The position numbers were made by a program, and so were the translations under genes. From a virus (taxonomy: Duplodnaviria > Caudoviricetes): 64,000 nt of DNA. Within the stretch, counting starts at the first letter, position 1. Each line of letters begins with the position of its first letter. Shown here in pieces: positions 10,936 to 53,669 of this stretch. A model generated the notes under the pieces. It saw only the letters and a program-made list of their open reading frames with translations, searched no databases and was not told the origin of the DNA. Location: positions 150,047 through 214,046 of IMG/VR virus record IMGVR_UViG_3300010167_001484; one strand, 5' to 3'.

Positions 10936-11316
10936 ATGAAAAAATTAGTAAGAGCATTCACAGGTACGAAACAATATGAAGGGTTCAAATTACTTGATCC
11001 TAAAACAAAAGAACTTCATTACTTTCCATATAAATCTGGTAGAAAAAATACAGATGTTGAGAATGAAGCAATAAGTAAATTGAAAGAAGAAACAGGTTAT
11101 GGTGGCTTCATGGTATATGAACTTGTTAAGTCGAGTACAGATGCTAAAGTAACTGCAGCAAGTGGAGAGGATGTTTGTTTCAAAGTAACATTAGAAGTAA
11201 CTATGTCGGGAGAAGTGTTTGATAGATATTCTGATGATAGTGATGATATCCAAGAACAGATAATTCATCTGATAGAAATAGGTCAATTTGAATTTATTGA
11301 TTCAGAATATTGTTAA
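10936..11316 (+). CDS. Protein with MKKLVRA leader; candidate internal head protein
   Basis: AGGAG RBS; internal VKSS and VTAAS motifs. Confidence 0.65.
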   Translation: MKKLVRAFTGTKQYEGFKLLDPKTKELHYFPYKSGRKNTDVENEAISKLKEETGYGGFMVYELVKSSTDAKVTAASGEDVCFKVTLEVTMSGEVFDRYSDDSDDIQEQIIHLIEIGQFEFIDSEYC

Positions 11317-11346: not shown

Positions 11347-12795
11347 ATGGCTGCAAAAGTTAAATCTGCAAATATAACAAATTCAACTATTTTAGGAGTA
11401 TTCGATGGTGAAACAATGGATACAACTATAACTAATCTTAATGGATTGGATATCACTGCGGAAGTTATGGATGCTGTATTTGAGTCAGATGAATACAAAC
11501 AAGGTATAGATAAGGGTTGGTATATTGGTTTCTTAGGTCATCCTGAAGATCCTAATGAAATGGGATTCCAGGATGGTTGTATTGTGATGACTGAAGGTCA
11601 TATGGATGATAGTGGGAAGGTATATGGTAAATTTAATCTCATTGATACTCCTGTTGGTCGTGTTGTCAAGACATTCATAGATGCTGGAGTTAAATTCGGA
11701 ATATCTATTCGTGGTGCAGGAGATATTGAGAATAATTCTGTAGATCCCGAAACATTTGTATTCAGAGGATTTGATTTAGTATCTTTTCCTGCTTATCCTG
11801 ACTCAGTTCCAAAATTTACTGAAATTGCAGCAAGTACTGATGCTAAAGATAGAGCCAAGTATAAGAAAATCTGTGCTTCAATTGCAACCAACCTTCAAGA
11901 TATTAATAGTATTGAAGCTTTAGATATAATTCAAAGTAATTTTGCACCACAATCAAAAGAATTTAAAATGTTAGAAGATAGACGTAAGTCCATTGAAGCA
12001 TCTGATATAATATCTATAAATGACGCAAAGATAACCGGTATGACTGAGTTATATATAGAAGCAGTTGAAGCTAATAAGAATTTATTACTTGAAATTGAAT
12101 CACTCAAAAAACAAGTGTCAAAATACTCAGTTACGGCTAATCAGCGTCTAGCTAAAATTAGACGTATTGTAGGTAATCAACTTTCTGTTGTAACTACTAA
12201 TAGAGATGAGCTAGTTACTGCTAATGAAGAATTGGTTCAAGCTGCGTCTGAGTCTAAGTTGTATCAAAGAGAGTTAGAAAGAAACAATAGATTATTAGAA
12301 CAATCTATTGGAGAATTAGAAGCATATATTAAAGAATTAGAGTTAGATAATAAGAAATTATCTAAGAGAATAGCCTCTTCAGAGAATTCTAACCTTATAT
12401 ATAGTGATAAGATAGAAAGTCACAAAGCCGAAATTAGAAAACAAGCCGATGTTATCGCTAGTCTGAGAGCAGAGCTCGATGAAACTGTCAACGGTGCATC
12501 TGATTTGGAAGACCAGACATCAAACCTTGATGAAAGAAACAAAGACTTAGATTCTAAGATTAAAGCTTCAAATCGCCTTCTTAGAGCATACCAGAATGCT
12601 TATAGCAAATTGTATGCTTCTGCTATAGGTAGTGACTATCATCTTGATTCATTGTCTATAACAGCGTCAACATCTGTACCTGAGCTTCAGAAAATAATTT
12701 CTGCAAGTTCTAATAATCTATCTGGTATTTTCGCAGAACCTGAACAGATTGATCTAGTAGATGGTGACCTAGACAATAATGTTATCATTTTATAA
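11347..12795 (+). CDS. Prohead maturation protease (T4 gp21-like) fused to a coiled-coil scaffold domain
   Basis: GFLGHP, FGISIRGAG and FDLVSFPA match gp21-type catalytic His/Ser/Asp motifs; long heptad-rich C-terminus; immediately upstream of the capsid gene. Confidence 0.9.
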   Translation: MAAKVKSANITNSTILGVFDGETMDTTITNLNGLDITAEVMDAVFESDEYKQGIDKGWYIGFLGHPEDPNEMGFQDGCIVMTEGHMDDSGKVYGKFNLIDTPVGRVVKTFIDAGVKFGISIRGAGDIENNSVDPETFVFRGFDLVSFPAYPDSVPKFTEIAASTDAKDRAKYKKICASIATNLQDINSIEALDIIQSNFAPQSKEFKMLEDRRKSIEASDIISINDAKITGMTELYIEAVEANKNLLLEIESLKKQVSKYSVTANQRLAKIRRIVGNQLSVVTTNRDELVTANEELVQAASESKLYQRELERNNRLLEQSIGELEAYIKELELDNKKLSKRIASSENSNLIYSDKIESHKAEIRKQADVIASLRAELDETVNGASDLEDQTSNLDERNKDLDSKIKASNRLLRAYQNAYSKLYASAIGSDYHLDSLSITASTSVPELQKIISASSNNLSGIFAEPEQIDLVDGDLDNNVIIL

Positions 12796-12821: not shown

Positions 12822-14264
12822 ATGGCAATTATAACAAAGCGCAAATCTAAAACTCCTGTGACTGCTGCCCGTAAACCTGTTCAAGCTAGTAATAATATCA
12901 CATCAGGTGTACGTAGTAGATCTAATTCACAGCGAGTTGCTGCTAATTTTGCTAAGTTAGATCCGAATCAGCAAGCTTTTGCTCGTCAACTTCAGGCTAA
13001 CTGCCGCAAACATTCAGCAATAATGGGCGCAACAAATACATCGAATATTGCAGCGCGTCCTGATTTTATTGAACTGCTTCCGTTGTTCGTCCAGAAATTA
13101 CTCATTCTTGATGTATTCGGCTCAGTAGCGATGAAATCACGTCAACAAATTATCCCTTACTTCAAAGTAGTGAGTGAAACAACTAAAGGTGAAACGAATA
13201 AAGGCGATGTTTTCAATACACCGTTTGTTAACCGTCAAGGTTTAGACGGTAACTTCACAGGCCGTGTTGTAAAGAACGAAGTCATGGCTGCAGAAGGTGG
13301 ATTTACATCTGGTGCAGTTAATTATATCCCCGTACTTCCTGGTTCTGTAACAATCAATGCTAACATTAGTGGAGTTACTAATATCTATACAGATGATGGT
13401 GCTGGTACTATCCTTGGTGCTGATGGTTCCGAAGAAGGTACAATTGCATATGATACTGGACTTATCACAATGGGTGATCCTATCGACACAAATGTAGGTG
13501 ATACCGTTAAAGCTACTTACCAGTATGACAATGAGACTGTTGGTCCGGATGTCAATGGAGACTATGGCGCTAGAATGGGTAAAGTCTATCTCCAGTTAGA
13601 TGAATTCAATCTAGTAGCAACTGCCCACGAACTCGCAAGCTATTGGTCAATTTTCTCCGCGTTTGCAGCCCAGAATGAATGGGGTACAAACATCGGTGAT
13701 ATGGCTAAAGAAGCAGCTTTCTCCGAATTGACAGCTGAGATCAATACAAAAGGTTTCAAAGCTCTTGAAAAAGCAGCGACCTATAAACCTCAGTACAACT
13801 GGGATGCTTCTCCTGTTTTGTCAGGTAGCGTTGTACCGTCAGATTACTTGAACATGTTTAAACTTAAACTCGGTCAAGCGTCAGCTTCTATATATCAGGC
13901 AACAAGACTTACCCGTCCGAACCGACTTACAATGGGTGCTAATGCTGCAGAATATATGAAAATGATCAATGGATTCTCTGCTGATAATATTGACGATACG
14001 GTTGGTCCATATAAGCTTGGTACACTTGATAACTTCGAATGCTATGTTGAGCCTTCGTATGACCCGAACAAGTGGGTAATGTCCTGTAAGAGTACAGACA
14101 TTCGCAGGAATAGCGGATTGTTTGGGGAGTATATGCCCTTCACAGCTACTGATGCAATCGGCCTTGCGAACGCTAGTGTGCAGCAAGGATATGCTACGAT
14201 GTATTGCATGGAAGTGGTCAACCCGGCAACAATCGTTTCTGGAAAGATTGTTGGAGTATTCTAA
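12822..14264 (+). CDS. Major capsid protein (T4 gp23-like, HK97 fold) with a basic N-terminal propeptide
   Basis: Follows the protease; ELTAEIN and GEYMP motifs and an insertion domain (VLPGSVTI...GTIAYDTG) as in large T4-like myoviruses; visibly more GC-rich codons, consistent with high expression. Confidence 0.88.
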   Translation: MAIITKRKSKTPVTAARKPVQASNNITSGVRSRSNSQRVAANFAKLDPNQQAFARQLQANCRKHSAIMGATNTSNIAARPDFIELLPLFVQKLLILDVFGSVAMKSRQQIIPYFKVVSETTKGETNKGDVFNTPFVNRQGLDGNFTGRVVKNEVMAAEGGFTSGAVNYIPVLPGSVTINANISGVTNIYTDDGAGTILGADGSEEGTIAYDTGLITMGDPIDTNVGDTVKATYQYDNETVGPDVNGDYGARMGKVYLQLDEFNLVATAHELASYWSIFSAFAAQNEWGTNIGDMAKEAAFSELTAEINTKGFKALEKAATYKPQYNWDASPVLSGSVVPSDYLNMFKLKLGQASASIYQATRLTRPNRLTMGANAAEYMKMINGFSADNIDDTVGPYKLGTLDNFECYVEPSYDPNKWVMSCKSTDIRRNSGLFGEYMPFTATDAIGLANASVQQGYATMYCMEVVNPATIVSGKIVGVF

Positions 14265-15659: not shown

Positions 15660-15992
15660 ATGGTTATCCAGAAGAAAACAGTTAGACCGATTAAAGCTGA
15701 AACAGAAGTAGCACCGGAAGTTACCGAGCTTCTATTTGAAGCTGAAGATGTAGCACAACTTATCGCTGAGGTAACAGGTGAAGATGTAACAGTTAGCGCA
15801 GAGCCTGATGCTGATGTTATTACATTCGAGGTTGCTGGCGAAGAATTCTCAGTTGAACCTGAAGGTGAAGAAGAAATGCTTGAAGCATCTACTCGTTTCA
15901 AGAAAGGTAAGAAGCCCGTAGCGGCATCAACAAGAAATCGCCGTCCAGCAGCTCCTGCTAGTCGTCCTGTCAAGAAAGTTGGACGTAGATAA
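15660..15992 (+). CDS. Acidic protein with basic tail; candidate core/internal head protein
   Basis: IKA, LEAS and VAAS motifs; Lys/Arg-rich C-terminus similar in character to the capsid propeptide. Confidence 0.6.
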   Translation: MVIQKKTVRPIKAETEVAPEVTELLFEAEDVAQLIAEVTGEDVTVSAEPDADVITFEVAGEEFSVEPEGEEEMLEASTRFKKGKKPVAASTRNRRPAAPASRPVKKVGRR

Positions 15993-16054: not shown

Positions 16055-16079
16055 TGTTAAATATTGTGGAGGTTTGATA

Positions 16080-17441
16080 ATGAAGATACAAGTTAATTCA
16101 TCTGCAGTTGAAGGTAAAGGTGAAATTAGAAACTTCTTTCGTAAATTGGCTGGTATAGTTGATACAGTTTTTAAAACATTAGATGATTGGTCTGTAGAAC
16201 AGCAGAAAGAAACAGATACAGGATGTAAGGTTCGTATTCGTAATACTGATTCTGATGATCTTCTAGATGTTGAATATATAAGAATTGAAGATGGTACACT
16301 TACTATCAAAATAAGAGATGAAGAAGGTAAAGAAACTATAAAGGAAGATGTACCTGACGATAAGGAGAGTGCATCAAATGCTCTTAAAGATATGTTAGAT
16401 AATATTGGTAATATAACTTCTAATACAGAATTGGATATTAATGATAATCCAATAGGTGATGATGACGTTGTCGAAGGTCTTGAAGGTATATTAGAAAAAT
16501 TATCAGGTATGTTGAATACTTTCTTCGACAGTACAGAAAACATTGAAGAAATTGATCATAAAGATATAACTAACGGTATTAAATATAGAGCTCAGCATAA
16601 TGATATATATGCAGATATTTCTATAACAAGTGAAGATGCTGGGGAATTGTGTAAAATTGAAGTTAAAGCGTCTACAGGTGATATACTTAGTTTAGATAAT
16701 ATTCCTAGAATAAAGGTGCTCAGTACTGTGAAGACTATGCTATGGCAGGTGTTTACAGGTTCTACTTCAGATGTTGATGCTTCTAGAGAGCTTCTAGTTA
16801 CTCTAAAACGTGTTGTAGGTAGTCGAGAAGATAGTATAGAACTTGTTGCAATCAATGCTAATTATTCTATAGAGGCTGCATTAGATACATTGGACGAAGT
16901 ATTAGAAGATGAAGAGATATTAGATCTTATTGATGAAGAACCTTTGAGTCTAGCAATCACTGATTTAGATGAATCCGATATGTTTGATGTAGAACAAATT
17001 GAGAGTGAAGAAGTTACTCAAGATAGTTCTTGTACTATCAATAATATACTTTCTGCTGTTTCAATATTTGCAAATAACATATTAATGATACATTGGAATG
17101 CTAAAGGTGATGATTTTAGTACAATTCATAATTTGACGGATTCCTGGTATTGGTCTGCTAGAAATGATTTAGATACAATAGGTGAATTGTCTGTTGAATT
17201 GTGTGGCTCTGCCCCCAATCCTGCTATGAGTTTAGATGATGTAGCTTTATTACAATCTAATACAGAATATACTATAGATGATGTCTATGTAGTTGTTGCT
17301 GCTCAGATGGATTCACTCATAACTACACTTGAAACATATTATGTTAATTTTGATCATGATGTTCAAAGTACTTTAGATAATATTATCCGTTATTGGAAGA
17401 AAGAGCGAGATTACAAGGTATTTCGTGTACTAAAAGATTAA
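16080..17441 (+). CDS. Acidic multidomain protein with a C-terminal Dps/ferritin-like domain
   Basis: IHWNAKGDDFSTIH...DTIGE resembles the Dps HWN-x-x-G-x-x-F-x-x-x-H...D-x-x-x-E signature; leader variant MKIQVNSS. Confidence 0.65.
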   Translation: MKIQVNSSAVEGKGEIRNFFRKLAGIVDTVFKTLDDWSVEQQKETDTGCKVRIRNTDSDDLLDVEYIRIEDGTLTIKIRDEEGKETIKEDVPDDKESASNALKDMLDNIGNITSNTELDINDNPIGDDDVVEGLEGILEKLSGMLNTFFDSTENIEEIDHKDITNGIKYRAQHNDIYADISITSEDAGELCKIEVKASTGDILSLDNIPRIKVLSTVKTMLWQVFTGSTSDVDASRELLVTLKRVVGSREDSIELVAINANYSIEAALDTLDEVLEDEEILDLIDEEPLSLAITDLDESDMFDVEQIESEEVTQDSSCTINNILSAVSIFANNILMIHWNAKGDDFSTIHNLTDSWYWSARNDLDTIGELSVELCGSAPNPAMSLDDVALLQSNTEYTIDDVYVVVAAQMDSLITTLETYYVNFDHDVQSTLDNIIRYWKKERDYKVFRVLKD

Positions 17442-24746: not shown

Positions 24747-24757
24747 GAGTTTGAGAT

Positions 24758-27500: not shown

Positions 27501-27656
27501 ATGTATTGTTCAAATTGTAAGGAAGTAGTGAAACCTAACGGACATTTAAGAAGTGGTATGCTATACTACACTTGTCCTCATTGTGGAGATATATTGACAG
27601 ATGTCAATAAAGTAGAGAAAATAGAAGATAATTCGGAGGTGAAAATTAGTTGTTAA
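27501..27656 (+). CDS. Small zinc-ribbon protein (51 aa, not in the ORF track)
   Basis: Read by hand: MYCSNCKE...YTCPHCGD. Confidence 0.55.
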   Translation: MYCSNCKEVVKPNGHLRSGMLYYTCPHCGDILTDVNKVEKIEDNSEVKISC

Positions 27657-30498: not shown

Positions 30499-30598
30499 AA
30501 ATATGTATTAAATTCGTTATAGTATATTGTCATACTTAATTGTATGTGGATTGAAATTAGTATATAAAATTATGCTATATAAGAAGGAGTAAATTAAG

Positions 30599-31450
30599 AT
30601 GAAAATATTAGTCAGTTCAGCAAGAAAAGATGATCTTATTAAACAAAGAGACCAATGGGAATCTGATAATGCTGCCCAGAAATCTAAATATGAAGCACAA
30701 AGTAAACAATTCTATGAAAAACAACAAGAAGTATTTGATGATATAAAAAATCAAGTACTTGGATATTTATCTGAGTGTAAGATAGATATTGTTGTTAATA
30801 TCATGCAGGCACTTTCATTTCAAGGTGGGGGTATAGAAGTTAGAGTCGAATCTAATGAACGCAACGTGCACGGTAAAGATAAAGCACTCAGTTGGAATTG
30901 GAGGGTTTCTTTAGATAGTGGAGGTGAGGTTGTTAAGGAAACATCATCTTGGTCAGGTTTACAAGCTACTACTCCTGCTCAACTTGATTCATTGAGAGAA
31001 ACTGTAAAAGCTTTAGAAATATTGAATGATATTGATTGGTCACATATGTTAAATGTAACTCTTCCTGATTATCGTGAATACGTGACTGAACCGTCTAGTA
31101 TTGGTCAACGTCCTAAATTTGAATCAGATATTCTTGATGAAGAATTGAAGGCTCTGATTGGTACTAATACACTAGTTAAGGGTATGTATAAGCCTGATGG
31201 TGATAGACATTCACGAGGTATGAATAAAAATTACTATCAATATTATCTGATATTGAAGGATTCTGGTAGTCAATATACAATAGCTGACGTATCTCGAGAT
31301 CAAGTTGAAAATGAGGAGTATCGTAGAGGTAAGACTCTTGCTGAACTTGTTGAAAGTGCTAAAAAGTATTCAAATAGAATCAGAAAAGATACATTCCAAC
31401 AGATGTTATTCAAACCTCTTGAAACTGTTGATGTTGGTGGTGTTGAATAA
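30599..31450 (+). CDS. Leader-bearing protein (MKILVSS); candidate internal head protein
   Basis: AGGAG RBS; first gene of the leader array. Confidence 0.65.
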   Translation: MKILVSSARKDDLIKQRDQWESDNAAQKSKYEAQSKQFYEKQQEVFDDIKNQVLGYLSECKIDIVVNIMQALSFQGGGIEVRVESNERNVHGKDKALSWNWRVSLDSGGEVVKETSSWSGLQATTPAQLDSLRETVKALEILNDIDWSHMLNVTLPDYREYVTEPSSIGQRPKFESDILDEELKALIGTNTLVKGMYKPDGDRHSRGMNKNYYQYYLILKDSGSQYTIADVSRDQVENEEYRRGKTLAELVESAKKYSNRIRKDTFQQMLFKPLETVDVGGVE

Positions 31451-31462
31451 AGGAGATATATA

Positions 31463-31828
31463 ATGAAGAGATTAATCAAAGCTGCAGATAATAATGATGT
31501 AATACTTTCATCTGAATATTTTGATTTAGTGTCTAGATCAGGTACAGGTATGGGTAATGTACCTTGGAGTAGTTATGAAATTTATTCTAAAGGTCTAGCT
31601 GAAGATTTGATAGTTAGAATTGATTTAAATAATCAAAATATTGATTTCAATAGTTGGAAAGAAGGTGAACCTCCTTTAAAATATATACCATATAGTATAT
31701 GTATTAATTGGGGATTTTCTTCTCAAGGTGATCCTGATGTAATTGGGATGATAACAGTACTTCAAGAAGCCATGAAATTTGGTAATGAAGTTGCTGAGCA
31801 TTTTGGTATTAAAACTATTAATTTTTAA
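31463..31828 (+). CDS. Leader-bearing protein (MKRLIKA)
   Basis: AGGAG RBS; leader motif. Confidence 0.7.
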   Translation: MKRLIKAADNNDVILSSEYFDLVSRSGTGMGNVPWSSYEIYSKGLAEDLIVRIDLNNQNIDFNSWKEGEPPLKYIPYSICINWGFSSQGDPDVIGMITVLQEAMKFGNEVAEHFGIKTINF

Positions 31829-31855
31829 TCAATTTAGAAGAAGGATAGATGTATC

Positions 31856-32068
31856 ATGAAGAAAGTTGTAAAATCTGAAATTGAAATATCTGATGATATG
31901 CTTAAGCGGTTGCTTAGAGAAGTTGCTAGATTGTCTAATAAGATATTAGATGATAAAAATTATGATGAGATTTATCATATGTCTGAAGAAACACGCAAAA
32001 AAGTTAAAACTCTTTGTAATAATTTCTTGGATACTATCATATATGAACTTGAATTAGATAGAGGCTGA
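31856..32068 (+). CDS. Leader-bearing protein (MKKVVKS)
   Basis: Leader motif; tight packing. Confidence 0.65.
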   Translation: MKKVVKSEIEISDDMLKRLLREVARLSNKILDDKNYDEIYHMSEETRKKVKTLCNNFLDTIIYELELDRG

Positions 32069-32070
32069 AT

Positions 32071-32334
32071 ATGAAAAAATTAATTAAATCATCCTCTTAT
32101 CCAGGAGAAACTTCTCTGGATAAACTTTCTTATATGTTAGGAGATTTAAGTAATCATATAACCGAAGTAAATCGTATAGTAAATGATATGTATGCAATAT
32201 CCACTGAATATAGTGAATTGAATGATATATTGGATAAAAGTACAATTCCATTTATTCAAAGTATGATTGAAGATGATAGGCCTGGAAGTATTCCTAGATT
32301 ACGTCAAGCAATTAAAGATGCAAAGTATTTATAA
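32071..32334 (+). CDS. Leader-bearing protein (MKKLIKS)
   Basis: Leader motif. Confidence 0.65.
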   Translation: MKKLIKSSSYPGETSLDKLSYMLGDLSNHITEVNRIVNDMYAISTEYSELNDILDKSTIPFIQSMIEDDRPGSIPRLRQAIKDAKYL

Positions 32335-32382
32335 GACTTTGTCATATTAATGTAGTATGTTGATTGAAGAAGGAGATATAAG

Positions 32383-32754
32383 ATGAAGAAGATCATAAGA
32401 GCGTCAGATGAAGCAAAATCATACAGAAAATTAATTAAATCTTCAACTATTGAAGATGAGGATGAAGAAGATCTTGAAGCATGTGACAGTGTTATGGGTG
32501 AAGATGGTGCTGATCAGTATGTAGAAGATGATATAATGGGTGCCGAAGGTGGTGGCTCTAAAGAAGAGGCTTTTGATGAGGGTCTATCTGATTTAAAATC
32601 TGATTTTGATTATGCTATGGATGGATTAGATAAGATGGCTCGCGATGGTAATACAGATGAAGCACTTTCTCTAGTACTTGAATTTAGTTCAGGTGTTGCA
32701 GGTATAATAAGTAAAATAGTAGATGGAATATCTGGAGAAGTTACTGAAGAGTAA
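32383..32754 (+). CDS. Acidic protein with a doubled leader (MKKIIRAS...RKLIKSS)
   Basis: Two leader copies plus LEA, VMG and IMGA motifs. Confidence 0.7.
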   Translation: MKKIIRASDEAKSYRKLIKSSTIEDEDEEDLEACDSVMGEDGADQYVEDDIMGAEGGGSKEEAFDEGLSDLKSDFDYAMDGLDKMARDGNTDEALSLVLEFSSGVAGIISKIVDGISGEVTEE

Positions 32755-32765
32755 GGAGATATATT

Positions 32766-33113
32766 GTGAAGAGATTAATAAGGGCTACGTCTGTAAAAGA
32801 TTGGGATTATAAGAAAGAAAATAGCATTGTAGATCCTTCTTATCTTGAATCTCAACTTCCTAATAGTATGAGATATAAAGAGTGGCATCTTGAGCCTAAA
32901 CGTGCTGACGAATCCACAATTGTTTTTACATGGATAACACAGGGAGAAGTTACAGATGAAGGATATATGTATATAGAACATTATGCAGATCAGATAGCAG
33001 ATGATCTTAGATACTATTATGAGGATGCTAAAACATTAGAAGTTGAAATATATCAAAAGGATTATCGCAATGATAAAACTAAATGGCACACCTTTAGTCA
33101 GCCCATTAGATAG
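32766..33113 (+). CDS. Leader-bearing protein (MKRLIRA)
   Basis: GTG start after AGGAG; leader motif. Confidence 0.65.
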   Translation: MKRLIRATSVKDWDYKKENSIVDPSYLESQLPNSMRYKEWHLEPKRADESTIVFTWITQGEVTDEGYMYIEHYADQIADDLRYYYEDAKTLEVEIYQKDYRNDKTKWHTFSQPIR

Positions 33114-33121
33114 GAGATATT

Positions 33122-35593
33122 ATGAGAAAAACAATATATGGAAAAAGGAGTACACCTGAAGATTTCTTAAATGCACTTGGTGATAAGATAACTGAATTGG
33201 AAGGAGGTATAACTTCTGCTCATAGAGCTGGAGATCCTTTTGATGATGAACTAGATGATTCAGATGAAATTACACTTCATGCACATTACACTTTACCTGA
33301 AGATGTTTATATGGAGATATTAAATCTAGAGTCTGAACAATCACAATATTCTGATAAGATTAGCAAAGCTGCTCAATTAGTATCAGAATATGATAGTCAT
33401 GCTTTCAATATATGGCAAAGGAATGTTGGTGAAGTAGGTAGTCCTGCATATCAATATAAAGAACTTACGGATTTACTTGTTATGAAGTATGAAGATATGT
33501 ATGGAGTACCAGATATAACTGCTGCAACAAATGTGAATACATCTACTAAGCGAATTATTCGTGCTACTAAGAAGGGTTCGCCTCAAGATTTTGAAGAAGC
33601 ACTTCATAGTCGTATATCTGAACTTGAGGGTGGAGTTCAATCTGCAGAATATGTAGAAGGTGTATTTCTTGATCAAAATGATGCGTATAATGCAAGTACA
33701 GGTCAATGGGATGATTATGAATCCGAAGAGCGAGGAGATAATTTCGAATATAAAGGATTCAATGTTCATAGAGATTGTTGGGATGGTGATGGTGAAACTG
33801 GTCCACAAGCCCCTCAAATATATTTTGAAATATATGGTCCTGAAGGTAATGATTATACAAATGAGGTAAATTTATCAGCATATTATGATGATAATAGTAT
33901 AACTGGATATAATTTTGATATATTCAAAGATGATGAAGTTAAACGTGTAATTGATGAACTTATATCAAATGGATATAGTTATGAAGAAGTATGTCCTAAC
34001 TGTCATGGTGGAGGTTGTCCAGATTGTATAGGATTAGATGATATAGATTCATCTGTGAAAGCCTCATCTGGTGGAGATATAGATCATATAACTGAAGACG
34101 ATATTCAGTTATGGATAGATGATGAATTGAATGCACTTGAAGATGATGATTGGGAAGGTTTACAGGATGTTATATGGGCTTGTCCAGATAGTGTTCTTGA
34201 GGATGATCTTCAACTTATGTATGATAGTTGTTTACATGATGGTGATTTTGATGATTGTGTATCATCCTTAGATGGTATTGCAAGTGATTATATAGATAAT
34301 TATATTACCTCTAGTGCAGATATAAATGATAAAATTCAAGGTCCTCAAACAAATGAAGATTTAGTTGGACTTGCAACAAAATATGGTTTGAATTATGATT
34401 ACGATGAAGCTGGTAATCTCATTGTATTTGATGAAACATATGATCTCAATCTTGCAGGATTAGAAGATGGTTACGGCCCTAATATAGATGCTTTCTTTGA
34501 TGAAGCAAGTCAGAACCCTTCATTCCATTATGAAGATTATGATGGTGAATTCGGTGTAGGATTCAAGGGAATAAGAGGTATAGCAGATGTGATGGGTGCT
34601 GATACATCTAATATTAATTACAATGTAGGTGATTTGTTTGAATTGACAGATACATCTCATCCTTATACTTTCGAGATATTGGAAATAACTGATGAACATG
34701 TTCAAATACAAAACTTCACCACAGGAGTTACACCTAGCCCTATATCTAAAGATGAATTTGATTCAAGATGGGGCTCAGGATATTATACTTATACTGGTAA
34801 TAAGGATACCGCATATGGTCCTATAGAATCTAGTGAATCCATATATGGTACAGGTGAAGGCGAAGTTGTTTTAAATAATACAAATACAGATGCAGAAGGT
34901 ATTCTAGCAGCTGATTTACTTAATGATAAAGATTATGTTGAAAGACTTGCATCTGAAACCGTTGATTGGGTCGCAAATTTTGGATATCAAGCAGGGTATC
35001 AAATACAGCCAGATGAAAATTATTTATACTTTGAAGTATTTGATGTAGATGATGTAGTTATACATGAATATCTTCAATCTATAGCTGATATTGAACCAAT
35101 TGAAGCCGATCTTTTTGATGATTCTAGAAAACTTGCAGAAGCTATAATGGAGGGTATACCTGGTTGGGAAGATAATATTGCTAATGATGAGGGTCTAGCA
35201 CTTGATCGTTCAGAATCTGGTTATGATAAATTTGGTATGCCTTTTGACGGAGTCGAAAGTTCTCAAGAAATTGTAGCAGATGATTATCCTGTTGAAGATG
35301 AATTCAATTCTGCAGTTCAAAGACCTAAGAAATTTAGAAAGTATGAAGCATTTCTTGATGAGTTAACAGCTATAGCATTTGATTGTGTAGATGTTGATGG
35401 TCTCAATTTTGAAAGTACTGCAGTTGATTGGCTTAGTAGTGAATTAAATAATCGTGATTTAGCTGAAAAATATGTCCGTCGTTTCATTAAAGAGAATGAT
35501 ATGGAGAATTCAGATACTGACTATGATATTGGAACTGATCATTATGGTGAACCTGAAATTCCTTATACTCCTCCTAACAGATATAGATATTAG
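33122..35593 (+). CDS. Large, very acidic modular protein; candidate processed internal-head polyprotein
   Basis: Duplicated P(E/Q)DF..AL...I.ELEGG(I/V)xSA module, internal KRIIRAT leader, more than 10 [IV]-x-[ASG] motifs. Confidence 0.7.
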   Translation: MRKTIYGKRSTPEDFLNALGDKITELEGGITSAHRAGDPFDDELDDSDEITLHAHYTLPEDVYMEILNLESEQSQYSDKISKAAQLVSEYDSHAFNIWQRNVGEVGSPAYQYKELTDLLVMKYEDMYGVPDITAATNVNTSTKRIIRATKKGSPQDFEEALHSRISELEGGVQSAEYVEGVFLDQNDAYNASTGQWDDYESEERGDNFEYKGFNVHRDCWDGDGETGPQAPQIYFEIYGPEGNDYTNEVNLSAYYDDNSITGYNFDIFKDDEVKRVIDELISNGYSYEEVCPNCHGGGCPDCIGLDDIDSSVKASSGGDIDHITEDDIQLWIDDELNALEDDDWEGLQDVIWACPDSVLEDDLQLMYDSCLHDGDFDDCVSSLDGIASDYIDNYITSSADINDKIQGPQTNEDLVGLATKYGLNYDYDEAGNLIVFDETYDLNLAGLEDGYGPNIDAFFDEASQNPSFHYEDYDGEFGVGFKGIRGIADVMGADTSNINYNVGDLFELTDTSHPYTFEILEITDEHVQIQNFTTGVTPSPISKDEFDSRWGSGYYTYTGNKDTAYGPIESSESIYGTGEGEVVLNNTNTDAEGILAADLLNDKDYVERLASETVDWVANFGYQAGYQIQPDENYLYFEVFDVDDVVIHEYLQSIADIEPIEADLFDDSRKLAEAIMEGIPGWEDNIANDEGLALDRSESGYDKFGMPFDGVESSQEIVADDYPVEDEFNSAVQRPKKFRKYEAFLDELTAIAFDCVDVDGLNFESTAVDWLSSELNNRDLAEKYVRRFIKENDMENSDTDYDIGTDHYGEPEIPYTPPNRYRY

Positions 35594-35607
35594 AAAGAAG
35601 CTAGATT

Positions 35608-36291
35608 ATGAAGGTATTGGTTAGAGCTGCAGTAGAAGATAATGATGATTATAGACAAGATGAATCTATTGAATCTAGATTAAATGATATTTATTTAATC
35701 TTCAATGATAAGCCTAATAAAGCTCTAGAAGCTAAATGGGAGAAAGCTTGGGATCTGTATGAATCTTGGCAAAGACACGGTGATGATAATGATTTACAAG
35801 CTGTTATTTCAATAATTTCAAAGGTAGAAAAGTCTAAGAAACAAACTGAGAGAGTTATCAAGAAAAAACGAGAGGCTGATCCTAATCATCCTGTAGATAC
35901 AATAGAATATATAGGTGATTTCTTCTATGATGGTAAGCATCTAACATTTAGGACTTTTGGTGCTTCTTATAGCTATCAGAATACTTATATATTACGTAAT
36001 GGTACTAAGATTGATATACCTGCTGCAAAAGATGCGATATCTAATGGAAATATTAGTGGGGACTATTTTCAAAAAGATGATAAGGTTGCCGAAGTATTGG
36101 AATCTATTGGATGGTTTTCACGTGAAAATTTAATCAAAGAATTTGCAAAACAATATCAAGGTTGGAGCAAAGAAGAGTTAGTTACAGAATTGAAGAGTAG
36201 AGATTCTAATAGATATAAGAAAGCAGAAGATTATAGTTCTACAGTTATTAGAGAGTGGTTAGCAGAATGTGATATAGGGAGTCAATGGTAA
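35608..36291 (+). CDS. Leader-bearing protein (MKVLVRA)
   Basis: Leader motif. Confidence 0.65.
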   Translation: MKVLVRAAVEDNDDYRQDESIESRLNDIYLIFNDKPNKALEAKWEKAWDLYESWQRHGDDNDLQAVISIISKVEKSKKQTERVIKKKREADPNHPVDTIEYIGDFFYDGKHLTFRTFGASYSYQNTYILRNGTKIDIPAAKDAISNGNISGDYFQKDDKVAEVLESIGWFSRENLIKEFAKQYQGWSKEELVTELKSRDSNRYKKAEDYSSTVIREWLAECDIGSQW

Positions 36292-36295
36292 TATA

Positions 36296-36592
36296 ATGAA
36301 ACGTGTTATTAGATCTGCATGGAAATCATCTTGGAATGATAAATTTGATGAAAATATTGCTGGTTCAATAATTCCAATTGAAGTAGCTCAAGAAATTGAT
36401 GATGCTGGTGGATATATAACACAAGAGAATAATCATACTTTTATTAGTTGTTCAAATGATGTGAATATCTTTAGATTATTAGATGATGCAGATATTGAAT
36501 ATTCTTGGAAACATGATTCTAGAGGTGATTTCAATTATAAAGATATGCCAGGATTTTATGATATAATAATTACAATTGATAATAATCAATAA
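36296..36592 (+). CDS. Leader-bearing protein (MKRVIRS)
   Basis: Leader motif. Confidence 0.65.
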   Translation: MKRVIRSAWKSSWNDKFDENIAGSIIPIEVAQEIDDAGGYITQENNHTFISCSNDVNIFRLLDDADIEYSWKHDSRGDFNYKDMPGFYDIIITIDNNQ

Positions 36593-36619
36593 ATACATTT
36601 TAAGGTAAGGTGAAGTAGT

Positions 36620-37756
36620 ATGAAAATATTGATAAAAGCTTCAGATAATAAATATAATGCAGGTCCATATAAATATATAACGACACATGGTATAGGTCCA
36701 GGCACATTACCTAAAGATGTTGAACTTGTTAAGGTTGTAGATCTTCCGAATTTTAGGTGTGAATTATATCTGGATAGACCTTTGACATCTGAAGAGCTTG
36801 ATTATTATGATATTCGTAGTGAAACAGGTGAAAGAGGTGGAGTCCAAGCATCTATTGGACTAAATACTGCGTTGAATGCAGCAATTAGAGCTATAACCTG
36901 TGATGATGACGATTATCGTTATAAAATTATGAATAAACTTGCAAGAGGTACTTATAAAATTCCTGAGGATATCTCCAGAAGAATTCATGATATCGTAGAT
37001 AGTTGTGATTCAATGCCTGATGAGTCTAATAATTATCACGGAGATTGTGTAGATAAATTGAAAAATATGATGGAAAATTCTGTTGAAGCGAGTCAACAAT
37101 ATATAAAATCAGATGAAACTTCTGATATAGTAGGGGATAGATATACTGGATCTGGTCTATATTCAGATAGGACTTGGAAAATATTGCCTGTAGATTTATT
37201 TAAAAGATTAGCGGAAGCTTTAGCTGATCCTCAAATTGTTGAAACTAAACCTAAGCACCCAAATCGAAGTGATCTGTATAAGAATAGATTTGAAGCATTT
37301 TCTAAAATAATTAATCTTCCAGAAGAATTCACCTCTGAAATTACTCAAACTTGGGATAGTGGATCACCTAGTGTTAAGATTAGTATAAAGTATGAAGATC
37401 AATCTGCTGGATATACTTATGAAGGGATTAGCCGTGAAGGTGAAGCAGGTATTAAAGATGCTATAAGTGTTATATATGAACGTATGTTAAGATACAGCGA
37501 ACCTGGTTTATTAGACGAAGATTCTGTAGAGCGTTGGATAATAGTTGACAAAGATGGTAAACAGACGTCTGATAAAGAATTTATCAGTGAAGAATCTGCT
37601 AACCAATGGAAAGAAGATGCAATCAGAACATGTTTACCTAACTTCAAATTGTCTTACTTATCAGAATATTATAATAGAGTTGTAAAAACATCTGATTCTA
37701 CTGTCAAAAGTTCTGTAGATATCGATGATAGTATGCATGTGGGGGTTACTTTATGA
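36620..37756 (+). CDS. Leader-bearing multidomain protein with an N-terminal DarA C-terminal-like domain
   Basis: MKILIKAS; HGIGPGTLPK...LDRPLTSEELDYYDI resembles the DarA_C pattern; VQAS and VEAS motifs separate domains. Confidence 0.65.
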   Translation: MKILIKASDNKYNAGPYKYITTHGIGPGTLPKDVELVKVVDLPNFRCELYLDRPLTSEELDYYDIRSETGERGGVQASIGLNTALNAAIRAITCDDDDYRYKIMNKLARGTYKIPEDISRRIHDIVDSCDSMPDESNNYHGDCVDKLKNMMENSVEASQQYIKSDETSDIVGDRYTGSGLYSDRTWKILPVDLFKRLAEALADPQIVETKPKHPNRSDLYKNRFEAFSKIINLPEEFTSEITQTWDSGSPSVKISIKYEDQSAGYTYEGISREGEAGIKDAISVIYERMLRYSEPGLLDEDSVERWIIVDKDGKQTSDKEFISEESANQWKEDAIRTCLPNFKLSYLSEYYNRVVKTSDSTVKSSVDIDDSMHVGVTL

Positions 37757-38445
37757 AAAGATTAGTCAGGACATCTAATGAAATTTTAGGAGTATCTGGA
37801 ACAATTCGTAGTCAGATTGTATCTAGAATAAGAGAAAGATTATCTTCTGAGCTTGAAGGTAAATTCAAACTTGCGGATATAGATTGTTATGACGATTACT
37901 TCTATTGTAAAGTCATATATTATATTCCTGGTGTTAAAGATGAATTTGTAAATAAATCAATATCAATTGAATGGGATGATAATAATTCCTCTGATACTAT
38001 TGATATGATTGATATTGAAGTTGATGCTGTAGTAGAATATTTTAATACTAAGTCTGGAGAAATTTCAGCTAGATATGATAAATATGCTAAAATTAATCCT
38101 CGTACAGAGAAAGCTATTGAAGATAGATTCCGTCTGCATAAAACTTTCAAAGAAGAGGATGAAGCGGTAGATGCTGCAATAAATATATTATCTAAATTCA
38201 ATTTTGAAGTTGATATTTCTTCTAGAAAAGAACGGGAAGAATTAGATAAAGGTATTGAGCCTAGTTCCTATGAACAGAGGATAAATTATGATGTATATCA
38301 TAATGATAAGTTAGTTAATGGAGGATTACAAGTTAAGAGATGTTTCCGGGATAAAGAGATGCCTTCGTTAAGTTGGGCTGTTAATGGGGCACCTTTCAAT
38401 TATTATCTTATACAAATGTATATGTTTGATAAAGCTTATAGATGA
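37753..38445 (+). CDS. Leader-bearing protein (MKRLVRTS)
   Basis: Leader motif; ATGA overlap with the previous stop. Confidence 0.65.
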   Translation: MKRLVRTSNEILGVSGTIRSQIVSRIRERLSSELEGKFKLADIDCYDDYFYCKVIYYIPGVKDEFVNKSISIEWDDNNSSDTIDMIDIEVDAVVEYFNTKSGEISARYDKYAKINPRTEKAIEDRFRLHKTFKEEDEAVDAAINILSKFNFEVDISSRKEREELDKGIEPSSYEQRINYDVYHNDKLVNGGLQVKRCFRDKEMPSLSWAVNGAPFNYYLIQMYMFDKAYR

Positions 38446-38459
38446 TGAGAGATGTTTTA

Positions 38460-38693
38460 ATGAAAAGATTAATACGTGCAGATAATAATATTTCACCTTA
38501 TAGTGTAGGTGATAGAGTTTCTTATGATGCTAATATAAGAGGAGTTACACCAAGATTAGGTGAGGGTGAAATTGTTAAAGTAAGTAGAGGTTATGCTACA
38601 AGTGGTCATTCTACATCTTGGGAATATTCTATAAAAGAAGACGATGGTCATATATGGGTAGCTGATGAACTTATGATAATAGACAAATTATAA
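38460..38693 (+). CDS. Leader-bearing small SH3/KOW-like protein (MKRLIRA)
   Basis: Start reassigned to the ATG at 38460; YSVGDRV...GEIVKV beta-barrel pattern. Confidence 0.6.
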   Translation: MKRLIRADNNISPYSVGDRVSYDANIRGVTPRLGEGEIVKVSRGYATSGHSTSWEYSIKEDDGHIWVADELMIIDKL

Positions 38694-38719
38694 TTTATAG
38701 GAATTGTGAGATTAGAATT

Positions 38720-39040
38720 ATGAAAAAATTAATTCGAGCTAGTGCAGATTATCGTAAATGTAGTAGATGTAGAGATTTATTACATATGGAGGAATTCGAT
38801 GGAGATAATCAAATATGTAACAGATGTATTGATTTACCTGATATAGAGGATGCCCCTGAATTAAGAATGTGTCAATATTGTCATAAAGAATTTCCTAAAG
38901 AAGATATGACTTGGACTATTGACTGTCAAGGTATAAATTACAGATATGTTGATGATAGTTGTTATGATAAATTGATGGCTAAAGGGTATGATGGGCAATA
39001 TTACGATGAGCGAGATGAAAATCTTGATTATGACTATTGA
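38720..39040 (+). CDS. Leader-bearing zinc-finger protein (MKKLIRAS)
   Basis: CSRC, CNRC and CQYC motifs. Confidence 0.65.
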   Translation: MKKLIRASADYRKCSRCRDLLHMEEFDGDNQICNRCIDLPDIEDAPELRMCQYCHKEFPKEDMTWTIDCQGINYRYVDDSCYDKLMAKGYDGQYYDERDENLDYDY

Positions 39041-39062
39041 TATATGTGAAATGAGGTAAATT

Positions 39063-39302
39063 ATGAAATTAGTTATTAAAGCAAATGCAGGTATCTCAGC
39101 TAATGGTAGATATTATGATTTGATAGATGATAATACTCAAACTGAATCTATAAGAATATTACGTGATGAGGGCTATTCTAATAATGAGATATTTGATGGA
39201 ATAGTTAATTATGAAGGTGGATTAGCATCTGGTTGGGAAATACGTAATCTGATTGAAAGCGTATATAATGTCAAAGTTGATATAATTGCTATGAAGAGTT
39301 AA
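39063..39302 (+). CDS. Leader-bearing protein (MKLVIKA)
   Basis: GAGGT RBS; leader motif. Confidence 0.6.
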   Translation: MKLVIKANAGISANGRYYDLIDDNTQTESIRILRDEGYSNNEIFDGIVNYEGGLASGWEIRNLIESVYNVKVDIIAMKS

Positions 39303-39316
39303 TATAGAATTTTGGG

Positions 39317-39796
39317 TTGATAAATATGCTAGATAATAGTCTCGGTAAAAAAGCAGAAAAGAAAATTAAAGAATGGTTAGATATACCTGAAGATGGTTAT
39401 TGTTTCGATCGTCTAAAGGATCAACAAACAGGTTTCTATGGTTCTAAGAATATATGTGATTTTACATTATTTAAATCACCATATTTTTATTATATAGAAT
39501 CTAAAAGTACTTGGGAGAATCGTATAGATTTCAGTGTGATAAGTGATTATCAATATGATAACCTTCTTAGAAAATCTAAGATAGAGAATGTATACGGTGT
39601 TGTTATAGTGTTATTTGCCACAGAGAAAAGGGCTTTTATTCTAGATATACAGGATATACATAAGGTTAAACAAGAAGGAACCAAATCATTGAATATCACA
39701 AAAATAGATAAGTGGTCAATTAAATATAGAGAAATACAAACAATACCAAATAATCGTAAAGAATTATTAGATTATATAGGTGAATTTGAGGTATGA
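39317..39796 (+). CDS. recU: RecU-like Holliday junction resolvase (PD-(D/E)xK nuclease)
   Basis: E near the N-terminus, CDF, IESKST and the Q...L motif of RecU. Confidence 0.8.
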   Translation: MINMLDNSLGKKAEKKIKEWLDIPEDGYCFDRLKDQQTGFYGSKNICDFTLFKSPYFYYIESKSTWENRIDFSVISDYQYDNLLRKSKIENVYGVVIVLFATEKRAFILDIQDIHKVKQEGTKSLNITKIDKWSIKYREIQTIPNNRKELLDYIGEFEV

Positions 39797-40011
39797 AGAG
39801 ATTAATTAGGGCATCTAAGACGATAGATCTTGAAGCTCAAGATGTTAAGCCTGGAGATCAATTGATTTTAGATAATCCGAGTGATGTAGAAGAGGTTATA
39901 GAATCTTTCACCAAAAATTCTAATAAGGGTTTAGAAACTACAATAATCACTTCTGGTAATATATATCATACATATGATTGTAATACATATGTATCAGTGA
40001 TACGAACTTAA
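39793..40011 (+). CDS. Leader-bearing protein (MKRLIRAS)
   Basis: Leader motif. Confidence 0.65.
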   Translation: MKRLIRASKTIDLEAQDVKPGDQLILDNPSDVEEVIESFTKNSNKGLETTIITSGNIYHTYDCNTYVSVIRT

Positions 40012-40031
40012 ACAGAAAGGGAATTCATATT

Positions 40032-40367
40032 ATGAAAAAATTAATTAAAACAGCTGAAGAGTTGAATCCTGTATTTAATCAGTTAGCTGATTCGGCAATT
40101 GCTGCTGGATATGATTTAAATGTTGATGGTCATGATATTATATTGACAACTGATAATGAGATGTTTCCAACTCTCGATGTTATATCTGAACCCTTTAAAG
40201 ATGGTTTCACATATGATGTTACTATGTCATTTCCTGTGTTGAATGCAGATAATATGGAATATGTTGATTCAGCTGAATATTATATAAAATTGTGGTTACA
40301 GATTGCAAAATTTGTTACACAAATACATAAATTTACATATTCTGAAACTGAGGAATCTGAAATATGA
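40032..40367 (+). CDS. Leader-bearing protein (MKKLIKTA)
   Basis: Leader motif. Confidence 0.65.
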   Translation: MKKLIKTAEELNPVFNQLADSAIAAGYDLNVDGHDIILTTDNEMFPTLDVISEPFKDGFTYDVTMSFPVLNADNMEYVDSAEYYIKLWLQIAKFVTQIHKFTYSETEESEI

Positions 40368-40561
40368 AGATATTTGTTAAAGCTAGTATGAAAAGTCGTT
40401 CAGGTGTATTCTTCAGATTAGATACCAGATTACAAGGATTTTTAACAGATCTGGAATATCTCAAACATCTATTTGATGAAGGAGAACTCACAGAAGAGGA
40501 TGCATATGAAATATTGAATTTAATCCAAGGTGCACATACTCAAATTCAAGAATATGTATAA
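40364..40561 (+). CDS. Leader-bearing protein (MKIFVKAS)
   Basis: Leader motif; overlaps the previous stop. Confidence 0.6.
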   Translation: MKIFVKASMKSRSGVFFRLDTRLQGFLTDLEYLKHLFDEGELTEEDAYEILNLIQGAHTQIQEYV

Positions 40562-40584
40562 ATAGAATATAGTATAAGAATATC

Positions 40585-40628
40585 TATTATAACCTTTTAT
40601 AGTTCTGTAAAGGGTTATAATAATTTTT
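40585..40628 (+). terminator. Hairpin terminator that overlaps an AACCTTTTATA motif
   Basis: TATTATAACCTTTTATAG / CTGTAAAGGGTTATAATA followed by ATTTTT. Confidence 0.55.
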
Positions 40629-40656
40629 GTAAATTATTAGGAAAGTAGTTACTATA

Positions 40657-40971
40657 ATAAAGAAATTAATTAAATCTGCATCAGCCAGTACATATCAAGG
40701 AACAATATCAATTAATACTGGTAATATCATGTCTGCTATGGAGAAGTTGTATGAATTTAGTGAGGATAATGTTAATTTAAGTGATGAATATGCATTTTTG
40801 ACAAGACAAGAACAAGTTGAATTATTTTCTATGTGTGCAAATGCGTCACAAGATATATATGATTTAGTCATTAAATTGAATAATGAGATTTATGACTATC
40901 TTAATGGGAAATACCAACAAAGTGATGAACATGATGATTCTTTAAATTTTAAACTTATGGGAGATCTATAA
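40657..40971 (+). CDS. Leader-bearing protein with a probable ATA start ((M)KKLIKSASAS)
   Basis: The 24 in-frame codons upstream of the track start (40729) begin ATA AAG AAA TTA ATT AAA TCT GCA. Confidence 0.55.
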   Translation: MKKLIKSASASTYQGTISINTGNIMSAMEKLYEFSEDNVNLSDEYAFLTRQEQVELFSMCANASQDIYDLVIKLNNEIYDYLNGKYQQSDEHDDSLNFKLMGDL

Positions 40972-44865: not shown

Positions 44866-45255
44866 ATGAAGAGATTAATTATAGCTTCAACACAATCTGC
44901 ACCAGATTTAGGTAAGTGGTCTGAATTCTATAAGTATGCATCTCTACAAGATATAGATGATTTGGGAGATGATACATCTAACTATATTTCTAAATATACA
45001 GGAGCGTTCTTTCATATTGAAGATGAAACGATGTGTGTAGAGAGTGGGTTAGATCTTATAGGTGTTGTGGTTCCTTATGATCATCTTCAGGAAGATTTAG
45101 AGAATAATGGATTAGATGTTTTGATTGCCGTTTTCTCTTCTAGAGGTGAATTGGAATTAGTAATTCAACATCAAGATAGATTACTTCCTGTAAGTTTGAG
45201 TGAGGTTACAAGATCTATTCCAGGTTATGGTTTAGAGCCTGATTTAGAATCTTAG
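44866..45255 (+). CDS. Leader-bearing protein (MKRLIIAS)
   Basis: Leader motif; AGGAAGGT RBS. Confidence 0.6.
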   Translation: MKRLIIASTQSAPDLGKWSEFYKYASLQDIDDLGDDTSNYISKYTGAFFHIEDETMCVESGLDLIGVVVPYDHLQEDLENNGLDVLIAVFSSRGELELVIQHQDRLLPVSLSEVTRSIPGYGLEPDLES

Positions 45256-53237: not shown

Positions 53238-53669
53238 TTGAAAATACTTATTAGATCGTCAATTGAATCTTTAAATAGTGCTACAAATACTGTTAATATG
53301 GCAGCGTTTTCTGATATACCTGAACCTAATTTGAATCCTCCAGAATATGATGATGAAGATACTGATACATATGCAGAAATTGTAATCAATTTCACTGGAG
53401 ATGTATTAATAGAAGATAATACAAGTATAGATGACTCAGAAGTTTCTTATGATGTTGAAACAAACACTATCATGGACGATAATAGCATTATTGAAGATTT
53501 CTATGAAGTGTTATTTCGTAATTATGCTGATCAGATCCCAGGACCTGGTATTTATTTGATGTCAGGTGATGCAACAATTAAATATGTAATATCTGGTTTT
53601 GATTATGATATTAATACTGATTTAGATATGAATGGTTCAGAAATTAATGTAGGTTTCTCCCGTAAGTGA
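53238..53669 (+). CDS. Leader-bearing acidic protein (MKILIRSS)
   Basis: TTG start after GGGAG; leader motif. Confidence 0.6.
   Translation: MKILIRSSIESLNSATNTVNMAAFSDIPEPNLNPPEYDDEDTDTYAEIVINFTGDVLIEDNTSIDDSEVSYDVETNTIMDDNSIIEDFYEVLFRNYADQIPGPGIYLMSGDATIKYVISGFDYDINTDLDMNGSEINVGFSRK

Follow-up and report, generated by a model that had tools for sequence, protein, structure and literature searches.

A short N-terminal leader common to unrelated proteins of a large uncultured phage: a putative head-assembly propeptide

Introduction

The internal proteins of T-even phages are diverse proteins that counter host defences and have only a 10-residue capsid targeting sequence (CTS) in common (PMC3012670, PMC9026906), as described for IPI, IPII, and IPIII of T4 and for the polymorphic internal-protein loci of other T-even phages (Mullaney & Black 1996; Repoila et al. 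1994; reviewed in PMC3012670 and PMC9026906). In phage P1, the first 30 residues of DarB constitute a packaging signal (PMC9024508), and in phiKZ-like phages (phiKZ, 201phi2-1, and SPN3US), a gp21-like protease carries out processing at S/A-X-E (PMC9026906, PMC5694885, PMC7411985). Here, we describe a short peptide, hereafter called the leader, that is found at the N-termini of many otherwise unrelated proteins encoded in a 64-kb stretch of viral DNA. This stretch (the window) is the terminal part of the 214,046-bp virus record IMGVR_UViG_3300010167_001484; the record has a G+C content of 33%, and nearly all of its genes lie on one strand. A previous reading of the window, made without database searches (the sequence-only reading), had proposed that the leader is a capsid-targeting code. 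On the evidence presented below, we consider the chances to be about even that the leader, M-K-[KR]-[LVY]-[IV]-[KR]-[AST]-[SAN], is a putative head-assembly propeptide of the T4 CTS kind, and this analogy is the best available and the most economical reading.

Occurrence of the leader

In total, 20 genes in the window begin with M-K-[KRILV]-[LIVF]-[LIV]-[KRSI]-[AST] (Table 1), and 35 leader genes were identified genome-wide, with a second array located at 96-103 kb of the genome. Genes were called as the longest open reading frames (ORFs), without a trained gene finder. Every leader N-terminus listed in the sequence-only reading was found where that reading had placed it, and the set is larger than the approximately 21-30 proteins it had claimed. 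For one of its entries, (M)KKLIKS, the leader codons are present at position 40657, in frame with the ORF at 40729, but ATA is found where ATG is expected. The leader of the 38460 gene starts at an internal Met of the 38442 ORF, and the 32383 product carries a second leader-like copy at residues 15-21.

The number of leader genes is far above chance expectation at position 2 of the 283 genes, which is 0.015 when calculated from the proteome composition and 0.13 when calculated from the position-specific N-terminal frequencies of non-leader genes. Six-frame matches to the leader, 35 in all, were confined to the coding strand (0 on the other strand), and a control scan of the DNA with the reversed pattern yielded 0 matches, compared with 25 for the true pattern. 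The core motif occurs 39 times, and 8 of these occurrences are internal, two of which directly follow an alternative upstream start. The leader codons vary synonymously at every position, i.e. AAA/AAG for Lys, TTA/TTG/CTG/CTT for Leu, AGA/AGG/CGT/CGA for Arg, and GCN for Ala, and Ser is encoded from both codon boxes (TCN and AGY), indicating that selection acts on the peptide. AT-rich codon bias, the null explanation that the sequence-only reading had itself raised, was rejected as the source of the leader on the basis of this synonymous variation and of the presence of 35 leader genes where 0.13 would be expected from the N-termini of other genes.

Position 8 is also constrained, being S, A, or N in 62 of the 75 leader proteins from five genomes. 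In the same 75 proteins, residues 8-15 are richer in polar and poorer in hydrophobic residues (p about 1e-5 to 1e-7), which is not the case in other proteins; this bias is as for a tag plus a linker. At the level of sequence, the pattern defines a tag, not a domain. RecU, which is encoded within the array, and the SNF2 helicase both lack the leader, and the use of RecU as a leaderless internal control therefore holds. A full-text literature search for the leader strings found no paper.

Table 1. Coordinates of leader genes, head-module genes, and promoter-like motifs. Positions are those of the window unless stated otherwise; leader genes are given by their start positions within each run, and the arrow marks a candidate cleavage position.
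Position	Strand	Feature	Evidence or remark
10326..10562	+	78-aa leader gene, upstream of conserved 116-aa gene and protease gene	head module
10576		conserved 116-aa gene	head module
10936..11316	+	126-aa leader gene, directly upstream of prohead protease gene	
11347..12795	+	prohead protease (about residues 1-160, T4 gp21 fold) fused to coiled-coil scaffold of ~300 aa; 482 residues	phrog_207, E 3.5e-20; Pfam Peptidase_S77, E 8e-5
12822..14264	+	major capsid protein, Gp23 family	Pfam PF07068, E 8.6e-11
14922		head-tail adaptor-like gene	head module
15660..15992	+	conserved 110-aa head-module protein, acidic core between two sites	ortholog alignment
16074..17441	+	conserved 455-aa head-module protein	orthologs: short basic N-terminal peptide ending [IV]-x-A↓[GE]
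30513..30536	+	TTTCGTTATAGTA-type promoter-like motif, 86 nt upstream of first array gene	next copy 45279
30599..33113	+	six leader genes in a row (30599, 31463, 31856, 32071, 32383, 32766)	
33122..35593	+	823-aa very acidic fusion protein, degenerate leader	
35608..39302	+	seven leader genes in a row (35608, 36296, 36620, 37753, 38460, 38720, 39063)	
39317..39796	+	RecU-type Holliday junction resolvase, leaderless, within array	phrog_843, E 3.5e-19; conserved in L062
39793..40561	+	three leader genes (39793, 40032, 40364)	
40590..40971	+	late-promoter-like motif (40590-40602), then ATA-start leader gene (codons from 40657)	
44866..45255	+	129-aa leader gene	L062 ortholog sits within L062 array
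53238..53669	+	143-aa leader gene, TTG start	
26449, 30513, 45279, 49131, 57183, 61522		TTTCGTTATAGTA motif copies	plus 21 more in genome
12391, 14375, 18553, 20428, 40590, 50677; genome 122812, 126524, 128688, 130534		TAACCTTWTATAT-class motif	

Distribution of the leader among related phages

Capsid proteins that are 54-68% identical to that of the window are encoded by 23 IMG/VR loci, and four of the corresponding genomes (G001, G002, G004, and G005) were analysed whole, giving five full genomes including that of this phage. In all five, the commonest N-terminal pattern in a reduced alphabet is the leader pattern, with a residue 4 that differs by lineage: Leu in this phage, Tyr in G001 and G002, and Val in G004 and G005. 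The four relatives contain about 25-28, 9, 5, and 3 leader copies, and a DNA scan with the Tyr variant revealed that about twenty additional viral contigs also contain arrays, with as many as 9 leader genes in 9 kb. By these counts, the leader is a clade-wide trait.

In a closer relative, represented by the contig L062 (218.8 kb), the locus is arranged as in the window (SNF2 helicase, array, RecU, and lysin). Its array contains 12-13 leader genes, only about half of which have orthologs in the window. A small leader ORF located just upstream of the protease gene, in the same position as in the window, is also present in L017 and L020. The leader stays at the N-terminus even though homologous domains lie at different distances from it, as seen in the pairs G000_55106 and G005_11306, and G005_99893 and G002_5434. 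Leader genes thus occupy hyperplastic loci, with 3 to about 35 copies per genome, turnover of gene content, and fusions or splits such as that found at 33122. The 33122 product contains a leader-like sequence, T-K-R-I-I-R-A-T, internally at residue 143. In L062, the sequence that aligns with it is the N-terminal leader encoded by a gene of its own; as judged from this alignment, the 33122 product is a fusion protein carrying an internal leader remnant.

Within the second array, at genome 97.3-101.1 kb (L025), five leader genes have a nearly identical upstream block, consisting of a CAACTC-N6-GAGTTG hairpin, TATATAAGAAA, a ribosome-binding site (RBS), and the leader codons. In this array, the 5' cassette appears to have been copied along with the leader.

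Bodies of the leader proteins

As the sequence-only reading had noted, the protein bodies that follow the leader are unrelated to each other and mostly acidic: only one weak BLAST pair was detected among 35 proteins, and the median isoelectric point (pI) is 4.8, compared with 5.6 for other small proteins (p = 1.6e-5). Most of the bodies are acidic proteins of 60-130 aa and are ORFans. Its statement that no hydrophobic h-region follows the leader was likewise confirmed, since the Kyte-Doolittle maximum over 11 residues exceeded 1.6 in only 1 of 35 proteins (1.77, a marginal value); for comparison, the maximum at a true membrane N-terminus (63752) is 3.7. The missing h-region, together with the polar residues at positions 8-15, rules out a Sec signal peptide or a lipoprotein signal.

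Pfam and PHROG scans of 87 leader proteins yielded isolated matches only, namely to DUF4116, an FmdB-like zinc ribbon, leucine-rich repeats (LRRs), S-adenosylmethionine (SAM) lyase, and a DarA_C-like domain. The last of these was found at residues 16-65 of the 36620 product with a sub-threshold score (17.7 bits, below the Pfam gathering cut-off of 27). Sub-threshold DarA_C matches were obtained for 11 of the 17 members of the 36620-domain family, with a best E of 1.5e-4, and a distant relationship of this domain to DarA_C is possible. Domains of the 36620 type recur in many very acidic modular phage proteins, most of which are leaderless. The leader proteins of G001 include a SAM lyase (33.3 bits, cut-off 28) and a BspA-type LRR protein. 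A multidomain protein of 626 aa in G004 (L056:7453-9330) unites pieces that are found elsewhere as separate leader proteins; it contains a weak methyltransferase match, a DarA_C-like domain, and a domain of a G005 leader protein, and it looks like a small 'polyvalent' protein built from leader-protein modules. Taken together, these domain hints (DarA_C-like, SAM lyase, LRR, and modular proteins) fit candidate counter-defence roles.

Prohead protease, capsid protein, and candidate processing sites

A T4-like head module is present in the window, and a link between the leader and the head is supported by the two leader genes at 10326 and 10936, which flank the 116-aa gene directly upstream of the protease gene. 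The protease-scaffold was modelled with AlphaFold2 (AF2) using 18 orthologs (mean pLDDT 72), and the model shows a compact domain at the N-terminus and, after it, a single very long helix. Its best Foldseek matches are three chains of T4 gp21 (5JBL; E 2.4e-5, probability 1.0, TMt 0.66, rmsd 2.4 Å), followed with weaker scores by herpesvirus proteases. The gp21 match came from this fold search; a profile search against PDB sequences returned coiled-coil noise only. Since a gp21-fold domain is followed by a coiled-coil C-terminal half, protease and scaffold reside in one chain, as in herpesvirus UL26 (PMC4498786).

Several conserved sites in the head proteins resemble the end of the leader. In the protease-scaffold, I-A-A↓S-T is found at the protease/scaffold junction (residues 160-164) in 22 of 22 orthologs, S-A↓T-N-T is found near the scaffold C-terminus (around residue 454) in many orthologs, and further leader-like sites are located at residues 213-219 and 449-455. 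The N-terminal region of the capsid protein (~75 aa) is basic and variable; it contains [KR]-P-[IV]-x-A↓[SG] at residues 17-23 in 19 of 20 orthologs, and I-[MT]-[GA]-A↓T-N-T (I-M-G-A↓T-N-T in the window) is found immediately before the highly conserved core. The 110-aa protein has two sites, R-P-I-K-A↓E (residues 9-14) and K-K-P-V-A-A↓S-T (residues 84-91), each present in 18 of 18 orthologs. Across these orthologs, the second site takes the form [KR][KR]-x-V-[KSA]-A↓S-T (e.g. K-R-x-V-K-A↓S-T), which is close to the leader. The conserved small-residue sites lie in variable stretches where head proteins are usually trimmed and where processing would be expected.

A search for sites of the T4 type, L/I-x-E, covered the leader and the boundary of the capsid propeptide, and such sites are conserved in neither; the leader contains no Glu. 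The capsid ortholog alignment contains no conserved Glu near the propeptide boundary, which makes cleavage after Glu, as in T4 or phiKZ, improbable at this boundary.

The regular expression [KR][KR].[IV].A[STG] matched the 66,767-residue proteome 13 times, compared with 1.07 matches expected. Of these matches, 8 are leaders, 3 lie in head proteins (protease-scaffold, capsid protein, and 110-aa protein), and one is the internal leader of the 33122 product. This count is partly circular, because two of the head sites informed the design of the expression, although the site at residue 213 of the protease-scaffold did not; an unbiased position-specific scoring matrix (PSSM) derived from leaders only was therefore also run. 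With this matrix, the head module accounted for 4 of the top 30 internal matches (1.1 expected, p = 0.024) and for 8 of the top 100 (3.7 expected, p = 0.03), which amounts to modest support. A complex prediction for protease residues 1-158 and the first 40 residues of the 39793 product, run without controls, gave a score of 0.01 and speaks neither for nor against an interaction.

Promoter-like motifs

Two classes of promoter-like motif were identified. The first, an (A/T)-rich stretch followed by TTTCGTTATAGTA, has 27 copies in the genome, which are mostly intergenic and lie 25-90 nt upstream of non-structural genes; its sole copy in the structural part of the window (1753) is located inside a gene (1655-1855). 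The second, TAACCTTWTATAT, i.e. TAACCTT(A/T)TATA(T/A), precedes structural genes and is likely to represent a late promoter class. A motif of this second type is also found before the leader gene at genome 128735, and a near-identical form precedes the ATA-start leader gene (40657). Most leader genes are probably not transcribed from structural-gene promoters. In addition, sigma-70-like promoters of the host type (TTGACT ... TATAAT / TATACAAT) are present in two long intergenic regions, at 46217-46352 and 61521-61983 (a 463-nt gap).

Comparison with known systems

The resemblance to the T4 CTS consists of an N-terminal peptide of about 7-10 residues that starts with M-K and is common to otherwise unrelated proteins, of fast-changing gene loci outside the core head operon, and of the presence of a gp21-fold prohead protease and a scaffold core. 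In T4, however, the tag ends at a protease cleavage site (L/I-x-E) and the cargo counters host restriction, whereas the leader has an unrelated sequence without a terminal Glu, so that a T4-type L/I-x-E cut is impossible. The two systems also differ in that the protease here is fused to the scaffold, at least 35 genes are tagged rather than three to a handful, the bodies are mostly acidic, and packaging and cleavage are predictions. In the P1 Dar system (DarA and DarB; PMC9024508), anti-defence proteins similarly enter the head via an N-terminal signal, and the 36620 domain is weakly DarA_C-like, but the signal of P1 exceeds nine residues in length and does not recur across a large gene set. 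The ejection or inner-body proteins of phiKZ-like phages offer a further parallel, i.e. a large phage with many head-loaded proteins that bear motif-containing propeptides and are trimmed by a T4-like protease. Their propeptides are nevertheless long, have no short leader in common, and are cut after Glu, and the capsid and protease of the present phage are only distantly related to theirs.

Herpesvirus UL26, with its release (R) and maturational (M) sites (PMC4498786), has a protease of the same fold class that is N-terminally fused to the scaffold. Further points of likeness are two candidate sites, the conserved I-A-A↓S-T at the junction and one with a small residue that lies ~30 residues before the C-terminus. 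Herpesvirus proteases recognise the consensus (V/L/I)-x-A↓S. The L-I-[KR]-A↓S of the leader has this form, a resemblance and not a test. The herpesvirus site is not used as a leader on a cargo set, and cleavage in the present phage is a prediction.

The proposed head-assembly propeptide and alternative explanations

As a head-assembly propeptide, the leader would bring a numerous and rapidly changing group of small, acidic proteins into a prohead filled with scaffold, and it would offer a cleavage site to the gp21-fold prohead protease. In this clade, that protease would cut after a small residue, at [IV]-x-A↓[STG], and not after Glu. The trimmed proteins would then be packaged, travel with the DNA into the next host, and some of them may counter host defence. 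The T4-like capsid targeting proposed in the sequence-only reading is borne out in part: the leader genes of the head module, the gp21-fold protease-scaffold, the leader-like sites in head proteins, the turnover of the arrays, and the cargo hints argue for it, but the T4 cleavage rule (after Glu) cannot hold, and the conserved sites point to [IV]-x-A↓[STG] instead. Its further suggestions, a portable packaging tag and 20-30 anti-defence proteins, are conjecture. The full scheme, in which a 7-8-residue code loads prohead cargo throughout a large uncultured phage clade and is cut by a gp21-fold protease with a herpesvirus-like A↓S specificity, yielding ~35 injected proteins that include counter-defence factors, is tentative, and we would give it somewhat less than even odds.

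Several observations weigh against a head-assembly propeptide. The gp21-family proteases of T4, phiKZ, and SPN3US cut after Glu (PMC9026906), and the proposed specificity would be new to the family. The [IV]-x-A motif is short and degenerate, and its unbiased enrichment is only ~3-fold (p about 0.02-0.04). At residue 4, the leader differs between lineages (L, Y, or V) with no matching change in the head-protein sites, so that either something besides the protease pocket must read this residue or it reflects common descent. The leader-tagged SAM lyase and LRR proteins would also be compatible with a cytoplasmic or a surface role. In addition, the two large arrays lie among non-structural genes, and the array in the window is headed by a TTTCGTTATAGTA-type motif and contains RecU; the location of most leader genes away from structural promoters is thus neutral to mildly negative for a role as head cargo. 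The internal-protein genes of T4 are transcribed before as well as during late times.

This location, behind the non-structural type of promoter and interleaved with RecU, would suit a leader that acts in the cytoplasm as a control tag, i.e. a degron or an adaptor-docking signal through which a common partner, or an AAA+ protease of the host (e.g. ClpXP), receives a cohort of early or middle host-takeover proteins for joint removal or regulation. Small acidic ORFan bodies are typical of early phage genes, and the SAM lyase among one relative's leader proteins points in the same direction, the classic SAMase of phage T3 being an early cytoplasmic enzyme. ClpX is known to recognise short basic-hydrophobic N-terminal motifs, e.g. 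the N-terminus of Escherichia coli Dps, which provides a lead and not a test. We nevertheless regard a cytoplasmic tag as unlikely, as it leaves unexplained the leader genes in the head module and behind late-type motifs, as well as the leader-like sites conserved within head proteins (capsid protein, scaffold, and 110-aa protein). An alternative in which the leader mediates docking or oligomerisation, so that interchangeable proteins can be attached to a single hub encoded by the phage (e.g. at the virion surface or in another assembly) without going into the capsid interior, likewise leaves the likeness to these internal sites unexplained. The BspA-type LRR protein of one relative, a typical binding module, and the lineage-specific residue 4, which suggests co-evolution with a receptor protein, would agree with such a hub, but most bodies are acidic, 60-130 aa in length, and devoid of adhesin-like features, and no hub candidate was identified; this explanation is distinctly unlikely.

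It is also rather improbable that the leader has no function of its own at the protein level and is either the passenger of a gene-capturing mobile 5' cassette or an aid to translation start and early elongation. A-rich codons after ATG do favour expression, and in the array at 97-101 kb, the leader codons are embedded in 50-80 nt of sequence that is almost the same from gene to gene and includes a hairpin and an RBS. The upstream regions of the array in the window differ from each other, however, and synonymous differences among the leader codons leave the residue classes unchanged; the peptide has persisted in relatives with capsid protein identities of only 54-68%, with a constraint that extends to position 8, and highly expressed structural genes lack the leader. 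The constrained small residues at positions 7-8 would, for their part, also be suited to recognition by an enzyme different from the head protease, e.g. a peptidase or a transferase, with one enzyme acting on many tagged substrates in the manner of ribosomally synthesised and post-translationally modified peptides (RiPPs). We consider such an enzyme very improbable, given that no enzyme gene consistently adjoins the arrays, which are flanked by the SNF2 helicase, RecU, and lysin genes.

Other features of the window

On the 3' side of the head module, tail-fibre-like genes are followed by the SNF2 helicase gene (27650), the leader array (30599-40561), and the lysin gene (40974). A megablast search with the array against cultured phages yielded no match. 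The major capsid protein is only about 25%, and at most 27%, identical to that of any cultured phage, so that no proteomically characterised relative exists.

The tail-fibre-like genes form a paralogous run (18595-26392) that separates the head-neck module from the helicase gene and is mostly missing at this location in G002 and L062. A Collar domain is encoded at 18595, and the N-termini are alike among the 19515, 19971, and 21968 products and between the 23127 and 24758 products. The 195-aa product of 17905-18492 contains a tandem acidic repeat of ~13 residues (V-E-E-A-K-V-E-D-V-I ...), and only its C-terminal part is conserved in L062. The SNF2 helicase (27650-30325) is 891 aa in length, whereas its L062 counterpart is 603 aa; the alignable residues are 1-141 and 422-890, indicating an in-frame insert of ~280 aa in the window gene. 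This insert is rich in Cys/His motifs and looks like an intein with a homing-endonuclease part. The lysin (40974-43286, 770 aa) comprises a Phage_lysozyme2 domain and five PG_binding_1 repeats and is 64% identical to its L062 ortholog, and a second, partial lysin paralogue is found at genome 145783.

Biological significance

Even if the leader is a cytoplasmic or docking signal, it would represent an as yet undescribed way to address about 12% of a phage proteome with one peptide. If it is a head-assembly propeptide, the leader would mark, from sequence alone, the full set of injected proteins, i.e. candidate counter-defence and host-takeover factors among otherwise unrecognisable ORFans, and its cargo set would far exceed that of any other single short capsid-targeting tag. 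It would also provide a very short, portable tag for packaging foreign proteins into phage heads. The capsid-targeting principle of T4 would then be general and scalable in large phages, with a protease specificity nearer to that of the herpesviruses.

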